From IMG/VR virus record IMGVR_UViG_2529293265_000005: a stretch of DNA of 6,699 nt; one strand, given 5' to 3'. Every line of letters begins with the position of its first letter. The stretch's first letter is position 1. Positions 6,243 to 6,699 of this stretch are shown here, piece after piece. The position numbers and the translations under genes were made by a program. The stretch is from a virus (taxonomy: Duplodnaviria > Heunggongvirae > Uroviricota > Caudoviricetes). The notes beneath the pieces were generated by a model. That model saw only the letters and a program-made list of their open reading frames with translations. It was not told the DNA's origin and searched no databases.

Positions 6243-6366
6243 TTAAGAGTGTGTTCCCGGGGTTTGCTTAGAATATTTTGTAAGTTGTCCGAAGAGATAT
6301 TTACAACACCAGAATGATGCATTATCAGTCCCCTGCCAGAGGTTCACTACGTAACCTGACCGACAA

Positions 6367-6402
6367 TGAAGTGGCACACTGAATTTGGCCACCTGAACAG
6401 AG
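6367..6402. repeat. Left terminal inverted repeat of the IS911-like element (about 36 bp)
   Basis: TGAAGTGG...GGCCACC architecture as recalled for IS911 ends. The exact length cannot be confirmed without the right end, which is outside the window. Confidence 0.55.
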
Positions 6403-6438
6403 GTGATATGCTCACCTCAGAACAACACAGGTGCTCCA

Positions 6439-6699
6439 ATGAAAAAAAGAAATTTTAGCGCAGAGTTTAAACGCGAATCCGCTCAACTGGTTGTTGACCA
6501 GAAATACACGGTGGCAGATGCCGCCAAAGCTATGGATGTTGGCCTTTCCACAATGACAAGATGGGTCAAACAACTGCGTGATGAGCGTCAGGGCAAAACA
6601 CCAAAAGCCTCTCCGATAACACCAGAACAAATCGAAATACGTAAGCTGAGGAAAAAGCTACAACGCATTGAAATGGAGAATGAAATATTAAAAAGGCTA
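6439..6699 (+). CDS. insN: IS3-family transposase OrfA (IS911 OrfA-like, helix-turn-helix plus leucine zipper), 3' partial
   Basis: ATG 6439 has AGGTG 6 nt upstream. Translation [87 protein letters not shown] stays open for 87 codons to the window edge. Absent from the ORF track only because no stop is reached. Confidence 0.88.

Follow-up and report, generated by a model that had tools for sequence, protein, structure and literature searches.

The late regions of phage 21, VT1-Sakai and H-19B, the DLP12 remnant of E. coli K-12, and Gifsy-1 of Salmonella provide the closest described counterparts of the locus analyzed here. In phage 21, only ∼370 bp separate the end of Q from the holin gene, tRNA genes occupy the interval from tR′ to the holin, a hairpin followed by a T run stands just upstream of the holin, and the homologs of the lysis genes discussed below bear the annotations SAR endolysin and spanins. 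In VT1-Sakai and H-19B, antiterminated transcription crosses several kilobases of leader and accessory genes before it reaches the lysis genes, and VT1-Sakai carries a stretch annotated as a putative late promoter, a Q-utilization (qut) site, and the rho-independent terminator of the pR′ transcript. DLP12 (quuD ... nmpC::IS5 ... essD-rrrD-rzpD) is a defective remnant with an IS, and Gifsy-1 contains an antQ-isrK-orf45-anrP locus (PMC4825925). Q proteins make polymerase resistant to termination, and they narrow its RNA exit channel (PMC12360218, PMC9388147, and bioRxiv 10.1101/651190), and a passage of PMC12360218, citing Forbes and Herskowitz 1982, states that Q suppresses polarity.

The window, i.e., the whole 6,699-bp stretch of DNA that was analyzed, is like phage 21 in its class II holin, endolysin, and Rz/Rz1 genes, which are ∼86% identical at the DNA level. 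This likeness is confined to the coding side: the Q-S region of phage 21, to which the earlier note had looked for a counterpart of positions 5824 to 6366, has homology that extends only 16 nt past the holin ATG. A sensitive blastn search of 5824 to 6366 against 50,697 phage records aligned at most 48 nt, in three phages. The promoter-proximal part of the operon was instead found in bacterial chromosomes that carry the same prophage remnant and lack the IS911 copy at which the window ends.

The window, its contig ends, and the IS911 junction

The window corresponds, base for base, to the whole of draft contig AGRD01000063.1 (assembly GCA_000281815.1) in reverse complement, and its source is one draft Escherichia/Shigella-type genome with a defective lambdoid prophage. 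The contig breaks inside IS4 on the left and inside IS911 on the right and represents a unique segment whose extension by the assembler failed at these two repeats. The phage genes are all encoded on the minus strand, on which the lysis cassette is followed by the packaging genes (5823 down to 562), with a 60-aa open reading frame (ORF) between the TerL and portal genes. The features of the window are as follows.

1 to 578, no strand assigned: IS4 end, matching IS4 copies in chromosomes L007 and L009; the portal gene is truncated at ∼579, and the prophage remnant stops there
1912 to 3645, minus: large terminase subunit, TerL
3642 to 4145, minus: small terminase subunit, TerS
4257 to 4607, minus: HNH endonuclease
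4650 to 5126, minus: Rz, intact (PF03245)
4712 to 4894, minus: Rz1, embedded in Rz, intact
5111 to 5608, minus: endolysin, intact (PF00959)
5608 to 5823, minus: class II (S21-type) holin, 71 aa, intact (PF04971)
5824 to 6366, minus: untranslated, holin-proximal leader of the late operon, 543 nt, colinear with L005 9457 to 10000 and with L001
5853 to 5888, minus: strong intrinsic terminator, a 10-bp stem and then UUUUUCUUU (-17.3 kcal/mol, z -4.4), equivalent to L005 9934 to 9969
6225 to 6244, minus: terminator-like hairpin and U run (-10 kcal/mol, z -2.6), equivalent to L005 9579 to 9605
6364 to 6366, no strand assigned: predicted 3-bp target site CAA, empty in relatives (L005 9457 to 9459)
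6367 to 6699, plus: left end of IS911 (IS3 family), 333/334 match; the contig stops 333 nt into the element
6367 to ∼6402, plus: left inverted repeat (IRL), with the same sequence as in full IS911 copies

IS911 is an IS3 family insertion sequence that was first described in Shigella dysenteriae. Over 6367 to 6699, all but one of 334 positions are identical to IS911 copies (E ∼1e-171), which include full copies in L007 and thousands of copies in E. coli; the terminal inverted repeat starts with 5′-TG, and the match to elements annotated as IS3 or IS911 family is 99.7%. Position 6367 begins with the exact terminal TGAAGTGG of IRL, and six insertion-free relatives, as well as E. coli RMDEC465, cease to be homologous exactly at 6366 to 6368. 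The terminus therefore lies where the earlier note had placed it, and the breakpoint matches the terminal TG to the base, next to unique prophage DNA. The transposase genes are antisense to late transcription and IRL faces the holin; orfA points away from the lysis genes, as had been described, with its ATG at 6440 on the plus strand. The called gene carries the Pfam domain PF01527 (HTH_Tnp_1), and its translation is identical to that of full IS911 copies as far as the contig end.

The full copies in L007 are 1,249 bp long and carry orfA, the A6G motif for frameshifting, an orfB whose product has an rve (DDE) domain, and the expected right repeat; the right end of IS911 reads ...CCAGTTTTTGTTGACCACTTCA. 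The window copy is the same in its left inverted repeat and orfA across 333 nt and differs in that only these first 333 nt are present and in that the frameshift motif at 6690 to 6695 reads A5G, where other copies have A6G. With A5G, orfA would be out of register for the production of OrfAB; the shorter run is probably a sequencing error, because the contig has five other homopolymer indels (at 233, 4175, 5829, 5857, and 6057) relative to six complete relatives. These indels also look like sequencing errors; the extra G at 233 causes a frameshift in the IS4 transposase. Three substitutions near the junction (at 6214, 6320, and 6323) agree with the leader variant of L012 and RMDEC465, unlike the otherwise closest L005 group, which hints at a small recombination patch.

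The leader fits the earlier description of some 540 bp of noncoding DNA ahead of the holin, and its ORFs have no Pfam match. The longest, a 114-aa ORF at 5978 to 6322, was considered as a gene and rejected, as it has no Pfam match and is broken by the indel at 6057 relative to the relatives. Neither tRNA genes nor Rfam RNAs were found in the window, leader included. The three minus-strand frames that leave the junction stop after 13, 5, and 40 codons, which corrects the earlier statement that all of them close within 13; the 40-codon frame belongs to a spurious 49-aa ORF that starts inside IS911, and even with this frame open, no Q C terminus abuts the element. No Q gene was found in the window by annotation or Pfam, and neither Q nor a pR′ element is present within 5824 to 6366. 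The absence of Q had been observed before; it reflects the limit of the assembly and not biology, because the contig breaks at repeats.

On the late strand, the terminator at 5853 to 5888 ends ∼30 nt before the holin ATG and does not vary among the six relatives aligned, one of which, IHE3034, is only 88% identical. On the opposite strand, the leader contains a candidate small RNA antisense to late transcription (5933 to 6066), with a TTGACA-17-TAAAAA promoter and a long hairpin at 5997 to 6054 followed by a U run (fold z-score, -3.4). Its promoter and hairpin are conserved in 88%-identical relatives, it has no Rfam match, and a second plus-strand terminator-like hairpin lies at 6069 to 6090.

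Q, pR′, and tRNA genes in insertion-free relatives

A protein identical to the window holin occurs in many genomes, and a look-up with the holin protein identified six insertion-free chromosomes (L004, L005, and L008 to L011). These are 99.86% identical to window positions 1 to 6368, share the same IS4-truncated portal gene, and have no IS at the junction. RMDEC465, at 99% identity, likewise continues without an IS. The native late region is given below for L005, in coordinates with the holin on the plus strand.

7390 to 7776: Q gene, H-19B/QuuD type, 128 aa (PF06530)
7781 to 8820: Gifsy-1-like module, with the Rfam RNAs isrK, c4-a1b1, C4 antisense RNA, and sRNA-Xcc1 and an ORF6N antirepressor-like gene
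8836 to 8930: promoter/qut/terminator element, ∼90 nt, homologous to VT1-Sakai
9010 to 9320: four tRNA genes (CAU, Arg, Thr, and Gly)
9457 to 9459: IS target site
10001: holin ATG

Q of the relatives is 79% identical to that of VT1-Sakai and 82% identical to K-12 QuuD. It is a distant homolog of Q21 (E = 3e-7), and unlike Q of phage 21 it lies ∼2.2 kb from the holin. The element at 8836 to 8930 is ∼85% identical to a stretch present in 363 phage records, which in VT1-Sakai is the annotated promoter, qut site, and terminator described above; its tR′ hairpin (8896 to 8925) has a predicted energy of -12 kcal/mol. The same pR′-like element was found in every fetched QuuD-type Q locus (the L005 group, L003, L006, and DLP12), and no copy was found in loci with other Q types or in the window. 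Besides L005, copies lie at 4696 to 4790 in K-12 (L018), 7350 to 7450 in L003, and 1501 to 1588 in VT1-Sakai (L019). The element accompanies QuuD/H-19B-type Q even where several kilobases of inserted genes lie between them.

By homology to the putative VT1-Sakai element, we place the Q-dependent promoter pR′ at ∼8855 to 8883 of L005. It would thus be separated from the holin by ∼1.1 kb and would lie ∼570 nt to the far side of the insertion point, with Q ∼1.7 kb beyond that point. This arrangement departs from that of phage 21 and from the premise of the earlier note that Q and pR′ of lambdoid phages lie directly upstream of the lysis genes. Another candidate for pR′, suggested by analogy with phage 21, was a TTGACC-18-TATATT promoter 5 nt after the Q stop codon. 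We downgraded it to the isrK promoter because the VT1-Sakai pR′/qut/tR′ homolog is at 8855 to 8925 and co-occurs with QuuD-type Q. The isrK module is also present elsewhere in Stx phages.

The leader from the tRNA cluster to the holin comprises 680 nt with two terminators, and the IS911 site is 136 nt past tRNA-Gly and 543 nt ahead of the holin. As in phage 21, tRNA genes separate tR′ from the holin, and a T-run hairpin lies just upstream of the latter. As in VT1-Sakai and H-19B, antiterminated transcription would cross several kilobases of leader and accessory genes; the relatives differ from these phages in having an isrK/antirepressor module between Q and pR′ and tRNA genes, not stx, after tR′. 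The succession of Q, an isrK-like RNA (Rfam, 77.5 bits), a c4-like RNA, an antirepressor, and lysis genes further downstream is that of Gifsy-1. In the relatives, this module is known from its sequence, and it lies beyond the IS911 site, so that Q, pR′, and the intervening elements are all outside the window.

Three further observations concern the borders of these units. The Gifsy-1-like module (here 7776 to 8820) directly follows the Q coding region and replaces approximately the last 19 codons of VT1-Sakai Q, and it is here, too, that K-12 QuuD and VT1-Sakai Q part. Prophages with QuuD-type Q and those with DUF1133-type Q become homologous within the 3′ half of the tR′ hairpin (L005 8896 to 8925, L001 8290 to 8325, and L012). 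This suggests that Q-pR′-tR′ units may be exchanged by recombination at the terminator, with the tR′ hairpin as the downstream edge of the unit. Finally, a sigma-70-like promoter at L005 8971 to 9000 (TTTGCA-18-TATTAT or TTGCAG-17-TATTAT), just upstream of the tRNA cluster, is conserved in DUF1133-type prophages and could allow Q-independent expression of the prophage tRNAs.

In DLP12, the lysis cassette is 90% identical to that of the window, and the same pR′-like element is present. Its IS5 has a different position: it lies between quuD and the pR′-like element, which is only ∼125 nt upstream of essD. IS5 is therefore outside the late transcript, whereas IS911 of the window is downstream of pR′. 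We considered DLP12 as a precedent for Q-dependent transcription reading through an IS and rejected it, since the pR′-like element is downstream of IS5.

The remnant was already extensively reduced in the relatives. In L005, the truncated portal gene is followed by IS4 and then by host raiA-pheA, and no head or tail genes were found in the remnant of the relatives. On the other side, an IS lies directly upstream of a dnaB-like gene, and no repressor, cro, or N gene was found upstream. With the early region and structural genes lost, Q probably lacks an early promoter of its own, and no phage would be made with or without IS911. The prophage was thus dead before any question of IS911 arose, its portal cut by IS4 and its early region missing.

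Predicted late transcription across the IS911 insertion

We conclude, with a probability of roughly 0.6, that the window records a genuine, strain-specific IS911 insertion in the late-operon leader of a dead remnant and that this insertion does not on its own uncouple the lysis genes from Q. The native order, as the relatives show, runs from Q through the isrK/c4-like RNA/ORF6N module, pR′-qut-tR′, and four tRNA genes into the leader, and from there to the holin, endolysin, Rz/Rz1, HNH, TerS, TerL, and truncated portal genes. Located between pR′ and the holin, IS911 would move pR′ and Q 1.25 kb further away. In such an operon, only a Q-modified, terminator-resistant polymerase would have reached the lysis genes, and the same polymerase should read through IS911. 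Ordinary transcription, including any that emerges from IS911, should stop at the two terminators within 5853 to 6244.

Several lines of evidence bear on this reading. The native leader is expected to confront Q-modified polymerase with three or four intrinsic terminators, among them L005 8896 to 8925 (-12), window 6244 to 6225 (-10), and window 5888 to 5853 (-17.3 kcal/mol). The antisense strand of a full IS911 copy, which late transcription would have to cross, contains terminator-like sites no more commonly than shuffled sequence. From the general properties of Q proteins, we infer that Q-dependent transcription would read through the element: because Q suppresses polarity and termination and native terminators are already crossed, a 1.25-kb IS is not expected to block it. 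A simple insertion should lengthen the leader and not sever it, because the Q-modified polymerase should pass such obstacles.

The empty site also yields a prediction for the unseen side of the element. In relatives it reads GACAA followed directly by TGCACC, so a CAA duplication is predicted at the right end of IS911. A simple insertion predicts that the right end is followed by CAA and TGCACCATTCTGGTGCTG (CAA-TGCACCATTCTGGTGCTGAAAAAAGAGCAC) and then by the tRNA-Gly cluster, with the tRNA/pR′/Q block intact.

The insertion appears to be strain specific. The IS911-leader junction gave no exact 46-nt match in GTDB species-representative genomes, and a junction-spanning megablast search of 5,426 complete E. 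coli genomes found no place covering at least 80% of the query. IS insertions at other positions of the same interval were observed in two chromosomes, at 7529 to 8777 in L007 and 7285 to 8441 in L009, both within the ORF6N gene. In L007, Q is lost altogether, and none of the three IS911 copies has matching flanking repeats, a sign that IS-mediated rearrangements are common in this lineage. The different insertions in the Q-to-holin interval of L007 and L009 fit IS-driven decay, and the insertion in the window would most simply be a neutral instance of the same process. An IS911 insertion in a defective prophage is an ordinary, already known kind of event.

The principal alternative, which we regard as possible though clearly the less probable, is that the lysis and packaging genes can no longer be activated, having been truly severed from Q and pR′ by IS911 itself or by an accompanying deletion or inversion. 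Ordinary transcription suffers polar effects from IS insertions, IS911 does sit between pR′ and the holin, and related genomes contain both IS911 copies without matching flanks and IS-linked losses of the Q region, as in L007. Against this, Q-modified polymerase resists terminators and polarity (PMC12360218) and natively crosses three or four terminators, the antisense strand of IS911 has no terminator excess, and the junction coincides exactly with the IS terminus, which simple transposition predicts. The earlier proposal that the insertion separates the late operon from its Q-dependent promoter thus holds for position, since Q and pR′ lie beyond the IS911 site in the relatives. Its corollary that the genes are "cut off" is not supported, given the terminators of the native leader and the suppression of polarity by Q. 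We consider that proposal partly supported: essentially right as an observation, and right in its interpretation of position but not of consequence.

It is improbable that the repeated IS insertions between Q and the holin, seen in the window, L007, and L009, represent selected silencing of an intact pinholin/endolysin/spanin cassette, or, independently, that the candidate antisense RNA at 5933 to 6066 (plus strand) modulates the lysis genes. A passage of PMC7918800 citing Leuzzi et al. 2017 describes a functional DLP12 lysis cassette as antivirulent in Shigella, and selected silencing would parallel that effect.

Still less probable is that the junction is an assembly artifact, in which short-read assembly of the draft contig would have produced a chimera at a repeat. 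The contig is indeed bounded by repeats, and its homopolymer indels relative to six complete genomes, together with A5 for A6 in IS911, look like sequencing errors. Nevertheless, the breakpoint matches the IS911 terminus to the base, the flank is unique prophage DNA, and assemblers normally enter a repeat from unique sequence only where reads span the junction. We give almost no credence to the substitute raised in the earlier note, a promoter reading out of the left end of IS911 that would take the place of pR′ and transcribe the lysis genes: outward or hybrid promoters can in general arise at IS ends, but the outward -35 of IS911 is in IRR (PMC9330008) and the holin-facing end is IRL, no promoter-like site was seen on the minus strand of 6367 to 6699 or on either strand of full IS911, and two intrinsic terminators lie between IS911 and the holin.

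For the strain itself, the finding matters little, as it adds one more IS copy to an IS-ridden, already defective prophage. If IS911 did silence the lysis cassette, this would fit a pattern of Shigella-type lineages disarming lambdoid lysis modules; nothing here shows that it does. The locus also illustrates that the absence of a gene is not demonstrable from a contig that ends in a repeat. More generally, in this prophage family the late promoter does not adjoin the holin but lies ∼1.1 kb upstream of it, behind a tRNA cluster, and polarity should not be taken for granted when an IS lies within a Q-antiterminated transcript.
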